Position numbers and translations under genes: made by a program. 64,000 nt of DNA from a virus (lineage: Duplodnaviria; Caudoviricetes): the IMG/VR virus record IMGVR_UViG_3300027672_001612, positions 32,001-96,000 of that record. One strand, written 5' to 3'. Shown here piece after piece: positions 11,879 to 19,042 of this stretch (positions within the stretch are counted from its first letter, which is position 1; every line of letters begins with the position of its first letter). The notes below the pieces were generated by a model. The model did not search any database. It saw nothing but the letters and a program-made list of their open reading frames with translations, and was not told the origin of the DNA.

Positions 11879-12394
11879 ATGTGGGAGAAACTATTTTGGT
11901 GGTTAGCCAAACGTAGAGGTACAGAAACACTAACCAACATATACACAGACAGTGAATATATGCACAGAGTATTCCTAGGACGCCAAATCCATAAGGACGG
12001 AATAGCTGGAGCATATGGTGGTGGAAGAGTCTGTCTAAATTTAATAACAGGTAGCGACTTACCTGTAGAGCATAATCACCCTTGGGGTTACTTTACTCTC
12101 ATACTGTCGGGAGGATACTATGAGGTTAGAGGAGAGGAACGTAAGTGGCGCAGACCTGGATGGTGTGCTATAAGGTCACATAACGATTTCCATAGAGTTG
12201 AAATCCCTGAAGGTAAATTTGCTATAACATTCTTTGTAAAAAGTCGACATGGGAAAATGGGTTCATACTTTATGGACAATGGCAAACCCGTTAAAGATTT
12301 AAAATTCTGGTTACGCAGAGGCATAGCTAGAGAAAAAATTGGAGCAATGATTAAACTTAAGACTCCAGAGGAAATAATAAATGACAACGATTGA
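11879..12394 (+). CDS. Cupin-like hypothetical protein
   Basis: HNHPW...ILSGGYYE...FHRVE. Confidence 0.65.
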   Translation: MWEKLFWWLAKRRGTETLTNIYTDSEYMHRVFLGRQIHKDGIAGAYGGGRVCLNLITGSDLPVEHNHPWGYFTLILSGGYYEVRGEERKWRRPGWCAIRSHNDFHRVEIPEGKFAITFFVKSRHGKMGSYFMDNGKPVKDLKFWLRRGIAREKIGAMIKLKTPEEIINDND

Positions 12395-13325
12395 TAATAT
12401 TCTAGCAATCACACCAGGCGAAGGAGAAATCTCAGATTGGTTTATTGAACGACTAGAGGTTTTAGTAGAGCAAGGACTGTTCCTAGATGCTAACCATGTT
12501 CTAGGCGTTAGAGAATCTATAGTGGATAGTTTAAAAGAATATAGTAACAAACACAATATAAATTCTGTTGTAGTAGGCATGAGCGGAGGCATAGATAGTG
12601 CCTTAACTGCCGCACTATTCAAACAAGCCGGATGGCAAGTACATGGCTTAACTATGCCTATACATCAAATCGAAGATGAAACTAATAGAGCAATAGAGAA
12701 CATCGATGCATTAAGATTAGAACGACACCACATAGACTTATCAGATCAGTTTGATAATATGCAAGAAAAACTAGGTGCATTCGATAGTACATACAGAGGA
12801 CTACAGCGTCAAGGTAATATTAAAGCAAGACTACGAATGATTGCATTGTATAATCTTGCACACGAAGTACAAGGTCTTGTAGCAAGTACAGATAACTTTA
12901 GCGAATTAGCCGCAGGTTTTTGGACACTACATGGTGACGTAGGCGACCTTGCACCTATACAAAGTTTAAGCAAAAGTTGGGAAGTTCCTGCCTTGGCAAT
13001 GGACCTCGGAGTACCCGAAAACACTATACATGCATTGCCTACAGACGGTTTAGGCATAAGTACTAGCGATGCAGACCAATTGGGAATGAACTACTTAGAG
13101 TTTGATGTGTTGTTAACAGACATGCTTAACCTACCAAAAATAGACGATAAGAGCATATACGAATACATAAATACTATAGATGATGAAGATGCCAAAGAAA
13201 AAGCTATGCTTGTTTTTGGTAGAGTTAAGATGACCGCATTTAAACGTGCTAATCCTTTTAATATTTTTCATCCTGTATACAGCGACAGATTCGCTAAACT
13301 AGACAAACTAGATAGGAGTTTATAA
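12381..13325 (+). CDS. nadE: NH3-dependent NAD+ synthetase
   Basis: GMSGGIDSA, NIKARLRM, GFWTLHGD, PTDGL; no glutaminase domain. Confidence 0.9.
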   Translation: MTTIDNILAITPGEGEISDWFIERLEVLVEQGLFLDANHVLGVRESIVDSLKEYSNKHNINSVVVGMSGGIDSALTAALFKQAGWQVHGLTMPIHQIEDETNRAIENIDALRLERHHIDLSDQFDNMQEKLGAFDSTYRGLQRQGNIKARLRMIALYNLAHEVQGLVASTDNFSELAAGFWTLHGDVGDLAPIQSLSKSWEVPALAMDLGVPENTIHALPTDGLGISTSDADQLGMNYLEFDVLLTDMLNLPKIDDKSIYEYINTIDDEDAKEKAMLVFGRVKMTAFKRANPFNIFHPVYSDRFAKLDKLDRSL

Positions 13326-13326
13326 A

Positions 13327-13626
13327 ATGGGAATATTTAAATGGATCGCTTCATTTTTTACATCACCATCACCAGCCGAAGTTGTTACAACTAAATCTGC
13401 TCCTGCACCAGCCCCAAAGGTTGTTAAGGCAGTAGCACCGGTAAAAGCAGTTAAGAAAACTGTTGCACCGAAGAAAGACGTTAGCGTAACTAAGGCAAGT
13501 TTGAGCAAACTTACTAAAGCACAGATAGAAGCTGAAGGTAAGAAGTTCGGACTCGATGTTGACAGAAGAAAAACTAAAGCAGATATTATTACAGAAGTAT
13601 TAGCCGCATCTAAAAAAGCAAAGTAA
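13327..13626 (+). CDS. Basic Lys/Ala/Pro-rich protein, possible nucleic-acid-binding helical C-terminus
   Basis: LSKLTKAQIEA...KTKADII resembles Rho-N/HeH; GGAG RBS. Confidence 0.55.
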   Translation: MGIFKWIASFFTSPSPAEVVTTKSAPAPAPKVVKAVAPVKAVKKTVAPKKDVSVTKASLSKLTKAQIEAEGKKFGLDVDRRKTKADIITEVLAASKKAK

Positions 13627-13656
13627 CATTAGTTAGCTTAACTTAGAAGAGGTTTA

Positions 13657-15543
13657 ATGAAAAAGAAAATTGTTTTAGTTCAACCTAATTTTAAGATAGG
13701 TGGCGGTAGTTTTACCGGTTATTGGTTACCGTACTCTGTAGGTTGTCTTTGGAGTTATGCAAGTCAGCACTCTTGGGTAACAGACGAATTTGAAGTACAA
13801 GACATAATATATAAGAGAGAAGCGCCTGAACAACTAGTTGATAGATTACTAGATTGTACAGTAGCGTTTTTCTCTTGTTATATGTGGAATTGGGAATACA
13901 ACAAATACATAGCCAAAGAACTAAAAAGACGTAACCCAGCGATTGCGATTGTATTCGGTGGACCACAAGTTACAACACGCCCTAAACAGGAAAAATTCTT
14001 CCTAAATCATCCATATGTAGACAGCATTAGCCTTACCGAAGGGGAAGAATCCTTTGTGGCTATACTTGATGCATTAAGGAACGACAATGCTTTACAAGAC
14101 GTCTACGAGGGTCTAAGGCTAGATGATTTAGAGGTACCTAGCCCTTACTTAACTGGCGTATTCGACAAGATTATGGCAGAGTCAGACCCTAACGAACAAT
14201 GGAACGGCACACTAGAAACTAATAGAGGCTGTCCGTTTGCATGTACTTTTTGCGATTGGGGTAGTTTAACGTATGCTAAAATTAAGAAGTTTCCTATGCC
14301 TAAAGTGTTACAAGAGTTAACATGGATGGCAGAGAACAAGATAGACTATGTTACTATTGCTGACGCAAACTTTGGTGTGTTCACAGACAGAGACTTAGAA
14401 GTAACTAACACACTTGTTGACTTACAAAACACATACGGTTATCCAAAAGTTGTAGATGCTACATGGTATAAGAACAGTAGCGATGAAATATTAGAGATTG
14501 TTAAGAAGTTTATTAGCAGTGGATTTAATAGAGGACTAACATTAAGTGTGCAAAGCATGGACATGGATGTTCTAGAAGAGATTAAAAGACGTAACATGGA
14601 AATGTCAGACTTAACTATGATTTTTGACAAGTGTAATAGAGAAGGCATACCAAGTTATACAGAACTTATTTTAGGCTTACCACTAGAAACATTTGAATCT
14701 TGGAAGTCAGGACTATGTGAAGTTATTAAAGCAGGACAACATAATGCTATTGAAAGTTGGTTAGCACAGATGTTAGAAAATGCACACATGAACTTACCAG
14801 AAGAAATTGAGAAGCATGGTATAACTACAGTTGTTGTGGAAAACTATGTTAGTGGATTCGAAGAAGAAGACAACATACCTGAAAAAGTATCATTAGTTAC
14901 CGGCACAAAATATATGCCTAAACCAAAGTTTATTGACAGTTGGTTATATGCATGGGTAGTTAACAACTTCCATAATTATGGTTGGAGTCAAGCACTAGCA
15001 AGAGTTATATATAAATTGAATGGTACTGAGTATGAAGAAACATACGATAAAATGTATCAAGCATGTATAGACGACACTGGCTTAGTTGGTGACCTATTCC
15101 GTACAGCTAAAGAACAACTTACATATTACTTAGAGACAGGTAGAAGTGATGGCGAAGGAAGAGAAAGCTTCAGTGGGCACACATTAATGTGGGAAGCTCA
15201 AAAAGACTTTCACTTGAATAGCAACGCAGTTAAGTCGTTTGTAAAAGAACACATGACTCCAGAGTATTGTAACATGGATCCTGTTATGTACCAATACCTA
15301 TTAGAATTTCAATCCAACTATACAACTGAAGAAAGCACAGACTATCCATTCCAATCAGCACCCGGTTTTAATTTTTATGAATACATAAACAACATAGAGC
15401 CAGAGCTAGTAATGACACTAGAGCCTTACCAATTTAACATAGCAGAAGATGTTAAAGGTGATGAATATTACAATCGACTTTACTTTAGACGTAGACAAGG
15501 TTGGGGCAAAACAATCATTGGCAAAAAACTCACTATAAGTTAA
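13657..15543 (+). CDS. Cobalamin-binding radical SAM enzyme
   Basis: N-terminal B12-binding-like domain (SCYMWN, GGPQ, EGEE); ETNRGCPFACTFCDW CxxxCxxC; DANFG. Confidence 0.9.
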   Translation: MKKKIVLVQPNFKIGGGSFTGYWLPYSVGCLWSYASQHSWVTDEFEVQDIIYKREAPEQLVDRLLDCTVAFFSCYMWNWEYNKYIAKELKRRNPAIAIVFGGPQVTTRPKQEKFFLNHPYVDSISLTEGEESFVAILDALRNDNALQDVYEGLRLDDLEVPSPYLTGVFDKIMAESDPNEQWNGTLETNRGCPFACTFCDWGSLTYAKIKKFPMPKVLQELTWMAENKIDYVTIADANFGVFTDRDLEVTNTLVDLQNTYGYPKVVDATWYKNSSDEILEIVKKFISSGFNRGLTLSVQSMDMDVLEEIKRRNMEMSDLTMIFDKCNREGIPSYTELILGLPLETFESWKSGLCEVIKAGQHNAIESWLAQMLENAHMNLPEEIEKHGITTVVVENYVSGFEEEDNIPEKVSLVTGTKYMPKPKFIDSWLYAWVVNNFHNYGWSQALARVIYKLNGTEYEETYDKMYQACIDDTGLVGDLFRTAKEQLTYYLETGRSDGEGRESFSGHTLMWEAQKDFHLNSNAVKSFVKEHMTPEYCNMDPVMYQYLLEFQSNYTTEESTDYPFQSAPGFNFYEYINNIEPELVMTLEPYQFNIAEDVKGDEYYNRLYFRRRQGWGKTIIGKKLTIS

Positions 15544-15572
15544 CACATCTTTTAATATTGTATAAATACAAC

Positions 15573-15781
15573 GGAAGTTAAGCAATCCCCCTTCCACAAG
15601 AGGACGGTTGATATAGGTGTCGGTTGTTCCGGTGAGTATCCGGTGTAGTTTCGCAATATGACAGACAGCATTACGAGCCTATGAGTACTATAAAAGTTAA
15701 GGAACTTTAACCCCTCAGCATTGTCCGTAAGGAGATGTGAATTTGGGTGCTAATTAAAATATTAGACTCAAGGAGAGTAAA
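15573..15781 (+). ncRNA. Candidate structured RNA or 5' leader (~210 nt) under a late promoter
   Basis: TATAAATA at 15561-15568; nested helices visible by eye (see findings); family not recognised. Confidence 0.5.
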
Positions 15782-15958
15782 ATGACAAGTATTATTTTAA
15801 ATACGAAGTCATTCTTTCAAAATATTGCAAACAGTTGGACCGGATTCAAAGACAATTATTGTCCTGAAGGTCAAACTTGCAATGACATTGCTACTATAGG
15901 TGGACTTATTTTCACTGTATGGTTTATGTACATTGCTATGGAACCAATACTGAGATAG
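15782..15958 (+). CDS. Small 58-aa membrane-anchored protein (not in the ORF track)
   Basis: AAGGAG RBS; MTSIILNTKSFFQNIANSWTGFKDNYCPEGQTCNDIATIGGLIFTVWFMYIAMEPILR; followed by a terminator. Confidence 0.7.
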   Translation: MTSIILNTKSFFQNIANSWTGFKDNYCPEGQTCNDIATIGGLIFTVWFMYIAMEPILR

Positions 15959-16021
15959 AATTAGACTGAATATACTATAACTATAAAACATGAATATCTT
16001 TAGGATATTCTCCCAAGTTTT

Positions 16022-16050
16022 AGGGTTCGCGGTTGCGGACCCTTTTTTTT
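16022..16050 (+). terminator. Rho-independent terminator
   Basis: GGGTTCGC-GGTT-GCGGACCC plus T8. Confidence 0.9.
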
Positions 16051-16062
16051 GGCTAAAATTTG

Positions 16063-16070
16063 TATAAATA
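16063..16070 (+). promoter_or_regulatory. Late promoter TATAAATA for the lipase operon
   Basis: Perfect T4 late consensus directly after a terminator. Confidence 0.7.
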
Positions 16071-16140
16071 CTTACTCTATAAGGACTCGGAGTCTTTTTG
16101 GGAAAACAAACACAGTAGGATGTGTACACAGGAGTAAAGT

Positions 16141-16932
16141 ATGGGATGGTTAGCAAATTGTTCTGAGTCAGAACGTGCCAGCATTTTGGCAAAACTGGCA
16201 GGTAGAGCTTATCTAAATGAAGCGGAATTAAAAGCCACAGAAAAAACATTAAAGATGCAAAGGTCGAAAGCAAAATTTATTAAAGACGGAGACGCAGAAG
16301 CGTGGGTATTTATTACTCGTGACGATGCTATTATTGTAAGTTGTAGAGGAACAGAGCCAACTAAGTTCAGCGATATACTAGCAGACTTAAAAACAATACC
16401 AGTTAGGCACCCTAGGGCCGGAAGAGTGCATCAAGGATTCAAAGAGTATTCAGATTTAGTATTCGACGAAATTGTAACACATGTTAAGAAAATGCGTAAG
16501 AAAGACGAAAACGTATTTGTGGTAGGGCATAGTTTAGGTGGAGCGATGGCAGTACTAGTAGCAGAAGGATTATCTGATGCTGGCGTACCTGTTAAAGAGC
16601 TAAGAACATTTGGTCAGCCTAGAGTAGGAAATAGAGCATTCAGAAGACATTTAGAAGGTTGTGATATAGGACGTTATATACGTTATGTTAATAATAACGA
16701 TATAGTACCTAGTGTTCCACCTTCAGCATTTGGCTTTGTACACGGCGGTAACTTGCATTACATAAACAGTTGGGGTCTTATTAGAGACATGACTGTATGG
16801 CAAAGAATGAAAGATGGTTGGAGAGGATTTTGGGCGGCTTGTAAGCAGTTTAAATTCTTTGATTTTGTAGCAGATCATGGCATGCCTAATTATGTAGAGA
16901 AGTCCGGTAACATTGCTAAGTTGGATAAATAG
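16141..16932 (+). CDS. Lipase, class 3 family
   Basis: CRGTE, VHQGF, GHSLGGA, TFGQPRVG, NDIVP, C-terminal DH. Confidence 0.9.
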   Translation: MGWLANCSESERASILAKLAGRAYLNEAELKATEKTLKMQRSKAKFIKDGDAEAWVFITRDDAIIVSCRGTEPTKFSDILADLKTIPVRHPRAGRVHQGFKEYSDLVFDEIVTHVKKMRKKDENVFVVGHSLGGAMAVLVAEGLSDAGVPVKELRTFGQPRVGNRAFRRHLEGCDIGRYIRYVNNNDIVPSVPPSAFGFVHGGNLHYINSWGLIRDMTVWQRMKDGWRGFWAACKQFKFFDFVADHGMPNYVEKSGNIAKLDK

Positions 16933-16960
16933 TATAGTAATATATTACGGAGATATCAAG

Positions 16961-17125
16961 ATGGTAGAGTATATCAAAAATAGAATTAAAGAAAGAACTA
17001 GTTGGGATGGTGGTGTTATAATCGCTATGTCTCTAGCAATAATCTTGTTCGGTGGTCTTGTTAAAATAGCGGCGTGGGCCGGTTTAGCATATGGCATCTG
17101 GGCAATAGTACAAAAAGAGGATTAA
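16961..17125 (+). CDS. Small membrane protein (holin-like candidate)
   Basis: 54 aa, two hydrophobic segments, charged ends; TAAATA and GGAG upstream. Confidence 0.6.
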   Translation: MVEYIKNRIKERTSWDGGVIIAMSLAIILFGGLVKIAAWAGLAYGIWAIVQKED

Positions 17126-17129
17126 TTAA

Positions 17130-17552
17130 ATGGCAAGTTTTGCACAAGAAAAAGAAATGAAGGCACACTTACTATTAATAGCAGAAGCAGGAACTTATGC
17201 TGGTTACTTCAGTCAAGGAACAAACGCGGACGGAGACGTAAGCACATTTTACCTTACTACTGATAGTGATAAAGCGGCGGCTGACACATTGTTAGATGCC
17301 AAAGTTGCAGAGCTTACAGCTAATGATATAGGTGGAGAAACAGCAGGCGGCGAAGGTCCTAGTGAATTCGACGGTTTCACTCCTATTCATTATGACGATG
17401 ATGTGGCTGGCAGTGATTATAGAACATGGTTTGTTAAAGATGCAGACGGTGAATACTATAAAACAGATAACGGAAACAGCGACAACCTTGCTCAAATTTC
17501 CGATGCTGATGAGATCACAACACTAATTACAGACAGCGGCTATATAGCTTAA
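17130..17552 (+). CDS. Acidic hypothetical protein
   Basis: 140-aa ORF with GAGG RBS. Confidence 0.7.
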   Translation: MASFAQEKEMKAHLLLIAEAGTYAGYFSQGTNADGDVSTFYLTTDSDKAAADTLLDAKVAELTANDIGGETAGGEGPSEFDGFTPIHYDDDVAGSDYRTWFVKDADGEYYKTDNGNSDNLAQISDADEITTLITDSGYIA

Positions 17553-17657
17553 ATTTTTTCGTAATGGGCAAAAGACTCTGCAGGTCCTAGCCCTTTACAC
17601 CCTTCACTACATACCAGTAATACTACACGATTAGCCTAGTCCTAGGTTAAATACATA

Positions 17658-17686
17658 TTGACAACAGACAATAAAGGTAGTACAAT
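17658..17686 (+). promoter_or_regulatory. Sigma70-type promoter (leaderless candidate)
   Basis: TTGACA-17-TACAAT; ATG 6 nt downstream. Confidence 0.75.
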
Positions 17687-17692
17687 AACACC

Positions 17693-18079
17693 ATGCACAA
17701 AGAAGAAGACTTACAGTTTCTAAACGAGTTAGAACCTAGCGAACTTTACGATTATATCGTAGAGCGTGGGGACAACATAGTTGAGTCCAAAGAGGACCTT
17801 ACAGCACTATGCACAAACGAACATAGAGTGTATGGCTGTCAAAGCCTTGTGTGGGTTGCAAGAAACGATAACGACTGGCAATGGGAAAGTAATGCATATT
17901 TTGTGCAAGGCTTAATTAACATTGTTATGACTCATGTAGTTAACATGACAGATGAAGAGATTGCTGAACTAGAGTTAAGCAAATTTGAATTTATTTGTGG
18001 TGAGAAAGTAACATGGGGAAGGGTAAGAGGCATTGAAAGTTTCTTGCAAAAATTAAAAACAATAGTAACGGAGAAATAA
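17693..18079 (+). CDS. sufE: SufE-family Fe-S sulfur-transfer protein
   Basis: RVYGCQSLVW, SNAYFVQG, R..G motifs. Confidence 0.8.
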   Translation: MHKEEDLQFLNELEPSELYDYIVERGDNIVESKEDLTALCTNEHRVYGCQSLVWVARNDNDWQWESNAYFVQGLINIVMTHVVNMTDEEIAELELSKFEFICGEKVTWGRVRGIESFLQKLKTIVTEK

Positions 18080-18667
18080 ATGAATTTTGTACCATATGTA
18101 ATAGAGAAGACATCACAAGGCGAACGTAGTTACGACATCTACAGTAGATTGCTCAAAGAAAGAATAGTATTTTTAAATGGTGAGGTGAACGATGCAGTAT
18201 CAAATAGTATTTGTGCTCAGTTCCTATTCCTAGAAGCAGACGATCCTGACGCTGATATTAATTTTTACATTAACTCTCCTGGTGGAGCAGTAACTAGTGG
18301 CATGGCTATATACGATACTATGCAATACATTAAACCCGCTGTAAGCACTATTGTAATGGGACAAGCGGCTAGTATGGGTTCATTCCTTGCTAATGCTGGC
18401 GCTCCTGGTAAACGTTTTATGTTACCTAATGCTAGGCACATGATACATCAGCCATTAGGCGGTGCAAGTGGACAAGCAAGTGACATTGAAATCCGTGCTA
18501 AAGAGATTGTTCGTATTAAGAAAGAACTTACTGATATATACGTTAAGCATAACAACAAGGGCAAAACTTACGAAATATTTGAGAAAGCTATGGATAGAGA
18601 CAACTTTTTGTCCAGTTCAGAAGCACTCGAAATGGGCCTTGTTGACGAAATTATTGAACAAAGATAG
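18080..18667 (+). CDS. clpP: ATP-dependent Clp protease proteolytic subunit
   Basis: [23 protein letters not shown] (Ser), MIHQP (His), DRDNF (Asp). Confidence 0.97.
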
Positions 18668-18679
18668 ATAAGTAATAGT

Positions 18680-19042
18680 ATGGAATTATTAAAAACATTC
18701 AATCCAGACAACGTTATTACATTTACAGAATCTGCAACAGAACATCTAGTATCACAGGTAAAAGCCAGTGAAGGCGCAATTGGTGTAAGTCTTGGGCTAA
18801 TGCCTAATGGCTGTGCAGGGTTTGAATACAAATGGGATATAGTTACTGAAGTAGAAGACGGTTATAAAGAACACATGATAGGTCCTTACTTGTTTCTGTT
18901 AGATGAGAAAAGTGAAGACTTCCTTGCAGGCAGTGAAGTAGACTTAGTTAATGAAGGATTAAAAGGGAAGACACTAGTAGTTAAGTCTCCAAAAGCATCC
19001 GGAGAGTGTGGGTGCGGGGAGTCGGTAACATTTGATGTCTGA
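18680..19042 (+). CDS. IscA/SufA/HesB-family Fe-S carrier
   Basis: ITFTESA, GCAGFEY, CGCGES. Confidence 0.9.
   Translation: MELLKTFNPDNVITFTESATEHLVSQVKASEGAIGVSLGLMPNGCAGFEYKWDIVTEVEDGYKEHMIGPYLFLLDEKSEDFLAGSEVDLVNEGLKGKTLVVKSPKASGECGCGESVTFDV

Follow-up and report, generated by a model that had tools for sequence, protein, structure and literature searches.

A covarying RNA, probably a 5' leader, of uncultured marine phages with two alternative pairings beside the ribosome-binding site of a small peptide gene

The window analyzed here is the whole 64,000-nucleotide (nt) stretch formed by bases 32001-96000 of the 109,775-nt IMG/VR virus record IMGVR_UViG_3300027672_001612 (Caudoviricetes). 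This record has an estimated completeness of only 30%, so its source is probably a jumbo phage; contigs of relatives of the source virus measure 119-340 kb. A reading of the sequence from 15200 to 16400 identified on the plus strand, in this order, a promoter box, a leader of ~205 nt, a Shine-Dalgarno (SD) sequence, an open reading frame (ORF) of 58 codons, and a terminator. Bounded by the promoter box and the terminator, this is a separate transcription unit inside a conserved gene block, and the self-contained unit of leader, 58-amino-acid (aa) ORF, and terminator that a first-pass annotation of the DNA had proposed at 15561-16050 is borne out. The plus strand of the leader contains no ORF of at least 30 aa. 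Comparison with homologous loci indicates that these ~210 nt do form a structured RNA leader, one that covaries strongly and was previously uncatalogued. The parts of the unit outside the leader are as follows (UTR, untranslated region).

15561-15568, plus strand: promoter box TATAAATA (family consensus GATAAATA)
15770-15775, plus strand: SD sequence AAGGAG, with the ATG 6 nt further on
15782-15958, plus strand: 58-aa ORF with an ATG start
15992-16016, plus strand: 3' UTR hairpin GAATATC-TTTAG-GATATTC, then TCCCAAG (from the sequence reading)
16022-16050, plus strand: intrinsic terminator, a 9-bp GC-rich stem and a T run (stem 16022-16043 with 9 pairs, 6 of them GC, then TTTTTTT)

The leader itself comprises six helices (P1 to P6) and a pseudoknot, with the following elements in the window.

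15573-15577 / 15591-15595, plus strand: P1 hairpin GGAAG/CTTCC with a 13-nt loop, three of its five pairs compensated (GC to CG, UA, or AU)
15581-15589, plus strand: 5' partner of the pseudoknot in the P1 loop, AGCA (15581-15584) and CCC (15587-15589)
15596-15599, plus strand: J1/2 linker, ACAA(G) here, consensus CACAAC
15600-15609, plus strand: 5' strand of P2, GAGG-ac-GGTT, pairing with 15709-15716
15613-15682, plus strand: variable P3 domain (P3, P3a, P3b, and P3c)
15693-15708, plus strand: P4 hairpin AAAGTT-AAGG-AACTTT, with the 3' strand of P2 directly after it
15709-15716, plus strand: 3' strand of P2, AACC-CCTC, identified by RNAalifold and compensatory change
15719-15737, plus strand: P5, C-ATT-g-TCC GTAA GGA-GAT-G, 7 bp with a bulged G and a GNRA loop
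15744-15770, plus strand: P6 hairpin TGGGT-g-CTAAT / ATTAG-ACTCA with a bulged G (-8.6 kcal/mol, z score -4.8)
15745-15751, plus strand: 3' partner of the pseudoknot, GGGTGCT, which is also the 5' arm of P6

In the window sequence alone the helices that the first-pass annotation had drawn are indistinguishable from chance, so it is the homologues that decide. Among the matches listed by pattern and protein scans, all from viral and metagenome contigs of marine origin, are about 100 distinct homologues of the leader; the pattern scans contributed 94 distinct leaders of 144-237 nt after removal of duplicates. Sizes in the family are ~145-235 nt, compared with ~205 nt for the window leader. Among the loci (numbered with an L) of related IMG/VR contigs that were fetched through the radical SAM protein encoded upstream, L001 and L002/L003 repeat the arrangement of leader, small ORF, and terminator directly 3' of that gene, and L008 has it on the opposite strand. 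The leader turned up in further viral contigs when the P6 motif and the P4 motif were each used for a scan, and a P4+P5 pattern scan of metagenome contigs gave at least 119 stretches from Tara and other marine samples. Two of the P6-pattern matches (L012 and L014) were not used, being located within coding sequence or in a different context.

The covariation that the first-pass annotation had asked for in homologues is present. A structure-blind MAFFT alignment (A2) was made from 38 leaders of the long type, and RNAalifold, run on A2, independently predicted P2, P3, P3b, P3c, P4, and P5, with two-sided compensation in 18 of 34 pairs. When the full 55-pair structure was scored on the same alignment, 94.0% of the cells were paired versus 83.7% after shuffling, and 24 pairs accounted for 212 compensatory cells versus 61.9 ± 7.5 in the shuffled alignments (0/500). 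Sliding the 3' partners by 1-3 columns left 30-51% of the cells paired. A covariance model (R1) built from A2 recovered all 94 leaders at 64-218 bits. The R1-fitted alignment of these leaders has 95% of its cells paired, 45 of 54 pairs compensated, and 813 compensatory cells versus 207 shuffled; this alignment leans to the structure, and the MAFFT alignment is the cleaner test. The same model finds the leader as a single copy, once in the window (15567-15784, 203.7 bits) and once in the whole 109,775-nt record. The putative 5' UTR thus holds a conserved structured domain with covariation, as is expected of a riboswitch.

Support extends to the individual helices, and six of the eight that had been drawn from the window sequence alone hold (P1, P3, P3a, P3b, P5, and P6). 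P1, which had been placed at the predicted transcription start, has 99.6% of its cells paired in alignment A3 and a folding energy of -4.4 kcal/mol alone. The J1/2 linker that follows it is at least 80% conserved over the 94 leaders and was absent from all search patterns. P2 is a long-range helix around P3 and P4, with 98% of the cells paired and with CG/GC/AU/UA and AU/GC exchanges in its outer two pairs; in the short subtypes its sequence is wholly altered and its complementarity kept, while the P3 domain is swapped for a single hairpin. Within that domain, P3 (ATAGG..TCG / CGA..CCTAT, the ATAGGT/GCCTAT helix of the annotation) has 6-7 compensated pairs, P3a (GTTGT/ACAGC, annotated as GTTGTT/GACAGC) is weak in the window sequence, and P3c has all four pairs compensated. 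P3b (CCGG-TGAGTAT-CCGG, 15629-15643) is 100% paired with four of four pairs changed on both sides, so this annotated helix stands. The T-loop-like character ascribed to its loop does not: a T-loop needs U at position 1 and A at position 5 (a reverse-Hoogsteen pair of the U54-A58 type), the consensus here is U-R-N-G-U-A-U, with U at 5 and A at 6, and only the 7-nt size matches.

P4 has the consensus AAAGTT-WAGG-AACTTT. Its stem sequence is invariant, which makes covariation impossible there, and it is identical also in loci found through the peptide (L214, L216, and L226-L228), with AAGG, TAGG, GAGG, AGGG, and TTCAAA as loops. The GTTAA/TTAAC helix of the first-pass annotation misses the register of P4 and is incompatible with P2. 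Two unpaired bases, AG, separate the 3' strand of P2 from P5. The TCC-GTAA-GGA hairpin of the annotation turned out to be part of this longer helix, flanked by AG on the 5' side and by TGAA (15738-15741) on the other, with 97-99% of the cells paired and 4-6 pairs compensated; the peptide-found L227 has U-A in place of its closing C-G pair. The GNRA loop, AGC, and TGAA were seen independently in L001, L002, L008, L013, and L214-L228. A minimal AUG-UGA frame inside P5 was considered as well and rejected, since its AUG is not conserved and its SD spacing is unusable.

A long-range helix, GGACGGT/ATTGTCC, had also been proposed. It is 77% paired, shows no compensatory change, and has a score reached by 230 of 500 shuffles; GGACGGTT pairs with AACC-CCTC (P2) in its place. 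Both of its strands lie in the covarying P2 and P5, where it would connect the conserved AC bulge of the former with the bulged G of the latter, so that it may represent a contact in the tertiary structure or an alternative fold of minor weight. Within this rejected helix the conserved AC bulge of P2 (15602-15605) and the conserved bulged G of P5 (15723) are complementary, with C-G in 34/38 and A-U in 28/38 leaders; the two, whose bases do not vary, may form a tertiary bulge-bulge contact.

The feature that distinguishes this leader is the strand next to the SD. Past UGAA and a spacer come 7-9 nt with which the P1 loop is complementary, and both sides change together across subtypes. In the window, AGCA-au-CCC pairs with GGG-UGCU (-8.1 kcal/mol). 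Other subtypes pair GCAC-aa-CGC in the loop with the target GCG-a-GUGC, CAUUGGUC with GACUAGUG, CUCUC with GAGAG, CAUCC with GGAUG, GCACUUC with GAAGU-u-GC, and ACUAGAUC with GAU-u-CUAGU. Over 65 unique combinations of loop and target, cognate pairs have a mean of -7.39 kcal/mol versus -5.81 ± 0.21 kcal/mol when permuted (0/5000), and over 24 target types the diagonal mean is -6.44 versus -4.39 off the diagonal (0/20000), in tests that take no account of phylogeny. The signal stems from differences among clearly distinct types. The pseudoknot strands are ~165 nt apart, on either side of the large junction domain.

The same segment is the 5' arm of P6, which the first-pass annotation had correctly drawn as TTGGGT-CTAAT/ATTAG-ACTCAA abutting the ribosome-binding site. 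This hairpin adjoins AAGGAG and can be extended to 15743-15771, and the minimum-energy fold takes in both A's of the SD sequence. Its outer stem shows compensation in 12-17 doubly changed sequences per pair, and in 90 of the 94 leaders the GGAG core of the SD lies 0-2 nt past the last P6 pair. At -8.6 kcal/mol, P6 on its own is about as strong as the duplex of the pseudoknot (-8.1 kcal/mol). Judged by these comparisons among homologues, segment 15745-15751 is a strand with two mutually exclusive pairing partners, both of them co-evolving and both evidently maintained by selection, and two such pairings beside the SD suggest a translational switch. In L176 (3019-3258) the P6 loop carries an insertion of ~33 nt, and large insertions are therefore tolerated there. 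The 3' strand of P1 was also considered as an anti-SD and rejected: the P1 variants GCAAG, UGACG, and AGACG come without matching SD changes.

The promoter box TATAAATA was confirmed at 15561-15568. In 89 of the 94 leaders the core of P1 begins 5-6 nt past this box, and because of that fixed distance the transcript probably begins with P1; the predicted start site is deduced from this spacing, and with the SD and ATG directly downstream the leader is probably a 5' UTR. In the window the octamer TATAAATA is not enriched (8 found versus 8.0 expected from shuffles). The shorter ATAAATA box is strongly strand biased, with 23 copies on the plus strand versus 4 on the minus strand, as expected of a phage promoter, and fits a phage-specific promoter; these boxes are mostly ATAAATAC and intergenic. 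In the comparison with the T4-type late box, TATAAATA is present at the locus, the family consensus is GATAAATA, and a conserved TTAAC lies ~17 nt upstream; the promoter would be called "late" by its resemblance to the T4 late box. A conserved DNA element lies further upstream.

15536-15556, plus strand: upstream element, consensus AAAACTTAAC-N5-7-(G)TTAAT, overlapping the radical SAM stop codon here

This element (AAAACTTAAC-N5-7-TTAAT) is common to 91 distinct upstream regions regardless of the upstream gene and ends ~5 nt 5' of the (G/T)ATAAATA box, and elsewhere in the window no ATAAATA box has a counterpart of it. Candidate roles are those of an operator, of a -35-like element, or of a terminus of the mobile unit.

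At the other end of the unit, a GC-rich stem-loop followed by a T run identifies 16022-16043 as an intrinsic terminator, and homologues have equivalent terminators after the ORF. An anti-SD-like sequence, TTCTCCCA, occurs between the 3' UTR hairpin and the terminator and was also seen in the homologue L013. A weak suhB/mmgR match (24.3 bits; gathering score 41) spans the stretch with the 3' UTR hairpin and the terminator. After the terminator comes a second ATAAATA box, ahead of a class-3 lipase gene.

An ORF of one family, 43-67 aa long, directly follows every leader, and the leader was seen with no other gene. Nucleotide diversity by codon position is 0.44/0.38/0.62 among 87 distinct coding sequences, and the excess at third positions argues that the ORF is translated. 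The 58-aa product has an amphipathic N-terminal helix, a FKDNYCPEGQTC motif, and a hydrophobic C-terminal helix (..WFMYIAMEPILR). Across the family the amphipathic N terminus is variable and is followed by FK(E/D)KYCPDGQTC(N/E)D and a hydrophobic helix ending in (W)FMYxAM(E/K/Q)PI; a few members lose the Cys pair. The product is predicted to be a small membrane peptide. It has no Pfam, PHROG, or NCBIfam match, and searches for homologues, including the ESM Atlas, returned solely "hypothetical" viral proteins. AlphaFold, given a 24-sequence alignment, models two helices that meet at a CPxG turn (predicted local distance difference test score, 68).

A search with the peptide only, which is independent of the RNA pattern, detected the leader by covariance model in 18 of 26 loci. 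Leaderless peptide genes lie directly 3' of an Hsp20 or a family-A DNA polymerase gene in other marine phages (L229:1444-1611, L230, L236; L231, L233:1480-1653, L234, L235, and L237). Since the peptide gene also occurs leaderless, the leader appears to be a regulatory add-on and not part of the gene.

The gene immediately 5' of the unit encodes a radical SAM protein.

13657-15543, plus strand: B12-binding radical SAM gene, 628 aa (Pfam PF02310 and PF04055)

Its nearest NCBIfam model is the KedN5-type methylcobalamin-dependent C-methyltransferase, with a score under the cut-off. A B12-radical SAM gene is the upstream ORF on the same strand in 43 of the 80 loci that have an upstream ORF and lies on the other side in 2 more; in others the upstream gene encodes either a NadE-like PP-loop ATPase or a B12-radical SAM protein of a second type. 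Downstream genes are a class-3 lipase in 40 of 81 loci, SufE in 13, and ClpP in 6. The order in the window (12381-19042) is NadE-like, radical SAM, leader and peptide, lipase, SufE, ClpP, and IscA. This block, from the NadE-like PP-loop ATPase to IscA, recurs in many uncultured marine phages, with genes dropping out (also in L018, L036, L057, and L099). The first-pass annotation had regarded 210 noncoding nt as unusual in a densely packed genome, a view that the window does not sustain: the 238-nt gap is unexceptional, and about ten gaps of at least 240 nt separate ORFs of at least 90 aa.

The leader seems to be confined to uncultured marine phages, as far as the collections searched show. Cellular genomes, represented by one per species (185,579 bacterial and archaeal genomes), contained no leader and gave just two matches to the P4+P5 pattern, both of which lie inside coding sequence, were rejected by the covariance model, and are attributed to chance. 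Among 50,697 deposited phage records, blastn with the window leader and with one divergent leader found no leader, tblastn found no peptide, and the radical SAM protein had a single distant match by tblastn, in a gut phage; no cultured carrier was found among these records. With Rfam 15 there was no match at gathering scores in the 64-kb window or in 7 homologous loci, and raising E (expectation value) to 10 over 15400-16200 produced only three sub-threshold, chance-level matches (suhB at the terminator, a snoRNA, and, on the opposite strand, Alpha_RBS). Neither a tRNA nor a tmRNA was found, and a full-text literature search for the motif sequence and for structured RNAs of marine phages found no description of the leader.

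That the window RNA is a cis-acting structured leader we hold with good confidence. That the pseudoknot and P6 switch translation is a closer call, which we place just on the probable side, and we give the same narrow preference to the proposal as a whole, namely, that the RNA belongs to a new family of structured 5' leaders of marine phages that act in cis on translation initiation of the peptide gene through the partition between pseudoknot and P6. During transcription, the P1 loop would be free long before its partner is made, and the partner would emerge before the 3' arm of P6. If the core (the junction of P1-pseudoknot, P2, P4, and P5) is folded or occupied, it would capture the shared strand first and the pseudoknot would win; the 3' arm of P6 and the SD would then be single stranded and ribosomes could load, which we favor as the ON state. 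Otherwise the local P6 would form and clamp the SD at its 5' edge. Since full burial of the SD is never seen, the direction of ON and OFF is a guess. A multihelix junction with conserved unpaired bases (CACAAC, AG, and UGAA), a GNRA loop, and conserved bulges make a small molecule or ion the first choice of trigger, and a small-molecule ligand is our leading, if tentative, guess.

Several observations weigh against this proposal. The fold of the whole leader is no more stable than its dinucleotide shuffles (-47.1 versus -47.5 ± 4.2 kcal/mol, z = 0.10), an outcome that the first-pass annotation had named as refuting a structured RNA, and the folding-stability criterion is weak compared with covariation. 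The pseudoknot permutation tests, as said, are blind to phylogeny. The SD lies in no conserved helix and hence is not itself sequestered. L057, L097, and L101 have the pseudoknot without P6; competition with P6 is therefore not the whole mechanism, and the pseudoknot would be part of the core fold, with P6 an accessory. The P4 stem and a GUGCUAA segment are conserved beyond the needs of pairing, which also fits recognition by a protein. In the 8 of 26 peptide-found loci that lack the leader, there is a short SD region only. Finally, most homologues were gathered with patterns that impose P4, AGC, GNRA, and TGAA, so the invariance of these elements is partly ascertainment.

Among the rival explanations, an unlikely one to which we still give some weight is that the leader is a ligand-independent element of folding pathway and stability, comparable to the type I toxin mRNAs of the hok family. 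Its alternative pairings would order co-transcriptional folding, the 5' hairpin would protect the mRNA, and translation of a possibly membrane-damaging peptide would be delayed or licensed by processing. Coupled covariations for exclusive pairings that govern translation are reported as the classic signature of hok mRNAs, and here too one segment has two covarying partners in a long structured leader, P1 sits at the presumed 5' end, a promoter box and a terminator belong to the unit itself, and the product of 43-67 aa has one hydrophobic helix. However, no conserved antisense promoter or antitoxin RNA was found: the alignments hold no conserved antisense element, and the sole promoter-like site, a weak one at 15820-15791, lies in nonconserved N-terminal codons. 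The mRNA also lacks pairing of its 5' and 3' ends, and the compact junction, with its conserved unpaired bases and GNRA loop, is more elaborate than a folding timer requires; in addition, this is a phage gene in a metabolic block and not a plasmid or chromosomal addiction module. Also unlikely, and rather more so, is a translational operator at which a phage or host RNA-binding protein shifts the balance of pseudoknot and P6, in the manner of the T4 gp32, RegA, and gp43 operators or ribosomal-protein leaders. Such an operator could account for a P4 stem that is invariant even in loci found independently of the RNA, for the conservation of GUGCUAA and of CUAAU/AUUAG beyond pairing needs, for the similar bulged G in three helices, and for the restriction of the family to phages sharing a syntenic block. 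It is at odds with the neighbors, which are genes for enzymes, Fe-S proteins, ClpP, and lipase with no RNA-binding protein consistently linked, with an encoded peptide that is unlikely to be an autoregulator, and with a size and junction complexity above those of typical protein operators.

Two further explanations are very improbable. A stand-alone RNA, either a trans-acting noncoding RNA or a self-cleaving ribozyme that lies upstream of the small ORF by chance, would suit the complex, tertiary-looking architecture with its pseudoknot and the occurrence of the peptide gene without the RNA; yet all ~100 leaders run straight into the SD, 0-2 nt after P6, and into the same ORF family, with no terminator between RNA and ORF and no match to a ribozyme family. 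The most improbable is a divergent cobalamin or S-adenosylmethionine (SAM) riboswitch tied to the neighboring B12-dependent radical SAM methyltransferase, which takes up the annotation's remark that part of the RNA recalls the cobalamin riboswitch. The frequent adjacency to the radical SAM gene speaks for it, as does a more divergent B12-radical SAM gene upstream in L018, L022, and L023. About half of the units, however, do not adjoin such a gene, and where they do, the RNA lies 3' of it and would control a different gene. Neither E values up to 10 in the window region nor gathering scores in the homologues brought a match to a cobalamin (RF00174, RF01482, and RF01689), adenosylcobalamin-variant, or SAM model, and the leader has no B12-box-like sequence; the annotation itself had pointed out that the GGGAA core is absent.

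Several known systems share features with the leader proposed here. In the Downstream-peptide and glnA (glutamine) motifs, too, a pseudoknot is employed close to the ribosome-binding site, and preQ1-II and SAM-II are H-type pseudoknot riboswitches that act on the SD. To these may be added the pseudoknot in the leader of T4 gene 32 (mentioned in PMC10690425). As in preQ1-II, SAM-II, and T4 gene 32, the loop of a hairpin pairs here with a downstream strand close to the SD, and translational control is proposed; in those cases the SD is part of the pseudoknot or adjoins it, within 50-100 nt, whereas here its strands are ~165 nt apart and the SD lies beside a competing hairpin. Downstream-peptide and glnA (RF01704 and RF01739) are marine motifs in the 5' UTR of ORFs of 17-100 aa of unknown family with coding-type substitutions (Weinberg et al. 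2010, PMC2864571). The leader resembles them in its marine origin, in its probable place in the 5' UTR of a very short ORF (43-67 aa), and in the coding-type substitution pattern of that ORF. It differs in that it matches neither model at E up to 10, is 3-4 times larger in the window with a P1-P6 layout of helices, precedes another peptide family, and was found only in DNA of viral or metagenome origin, with none in the genomes of cyanobacteria or other cells that were searched.

The manA and wcaG motifs (RF01745 and RF01761) are orphan riboswitch candidates from marine metagenomes and T4-like cyanophages (PMC2864571), and they too are structured, covarying orphan motifs in 5' UTRs of marine phages. 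They precede metabolic or photosynthesis genes, while the leader, which matches neither model, precedes a single family of small membrane peptides and has an explicit candidate for a two-partner switch at the SD. An IMG/VR catalogue of 2023 lists 8,495 unnamed candidate structured RNAs, with models that average 67 nt, and names no such motif (PMC10690425); a fragment of the leader may be among those models, given the common source. The leader appears to represent a new family of structured cis-regulatory leaders and a riboswitch candidate, of unusual architecture and with an unusually explicit switch signature. The suggestion of the first-pass annotation that the stretch is an unrecognized riboswitch-like leader or noncoding RNA is supported by the lack of an Rfam 15 match, the conservation in ~100 distinct loci, the covariation, the fixed ORF, and the alternative between pseudoknot and helix.

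Structured regulatory RNAs borne by phages are few, and the marine ones, manA and wcaG, are still orphans. The family described here is abundant in ocean metagenomes (at least 119 stretches), large, and intricately folded, and its computational switch signature, one strand with two co-evolving partners beside the ribosome-binding site, is unusually clear. The leader is thus a candidate, open to direct testing, for a riboswitch of a new class or for a translational switch of a new sort that a protein or folding controls, and covariance model R1 can be used in the annotation of viromes. The finding also points to an uncharacterized small membrane peptide that would be tightly regulated in many marine phages. 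A bolder and doubtful possibility is that this is the first phage-confined class of riboswitches, an aptamer of ~200 nt for a metabolite or metal tied to the block of B12-radical SAM, Fe-S (SufE and IscA), and ClpP genes, which would gate synthesis of the Cys-x-x-Gly-x-x-Cys membrane peptide by letting pseudoknot and hairpin compete at the SD. If this is true, the Cys-x-x-Gly-x-x-Cys peptide could time a late, membrane-directed step of infection.

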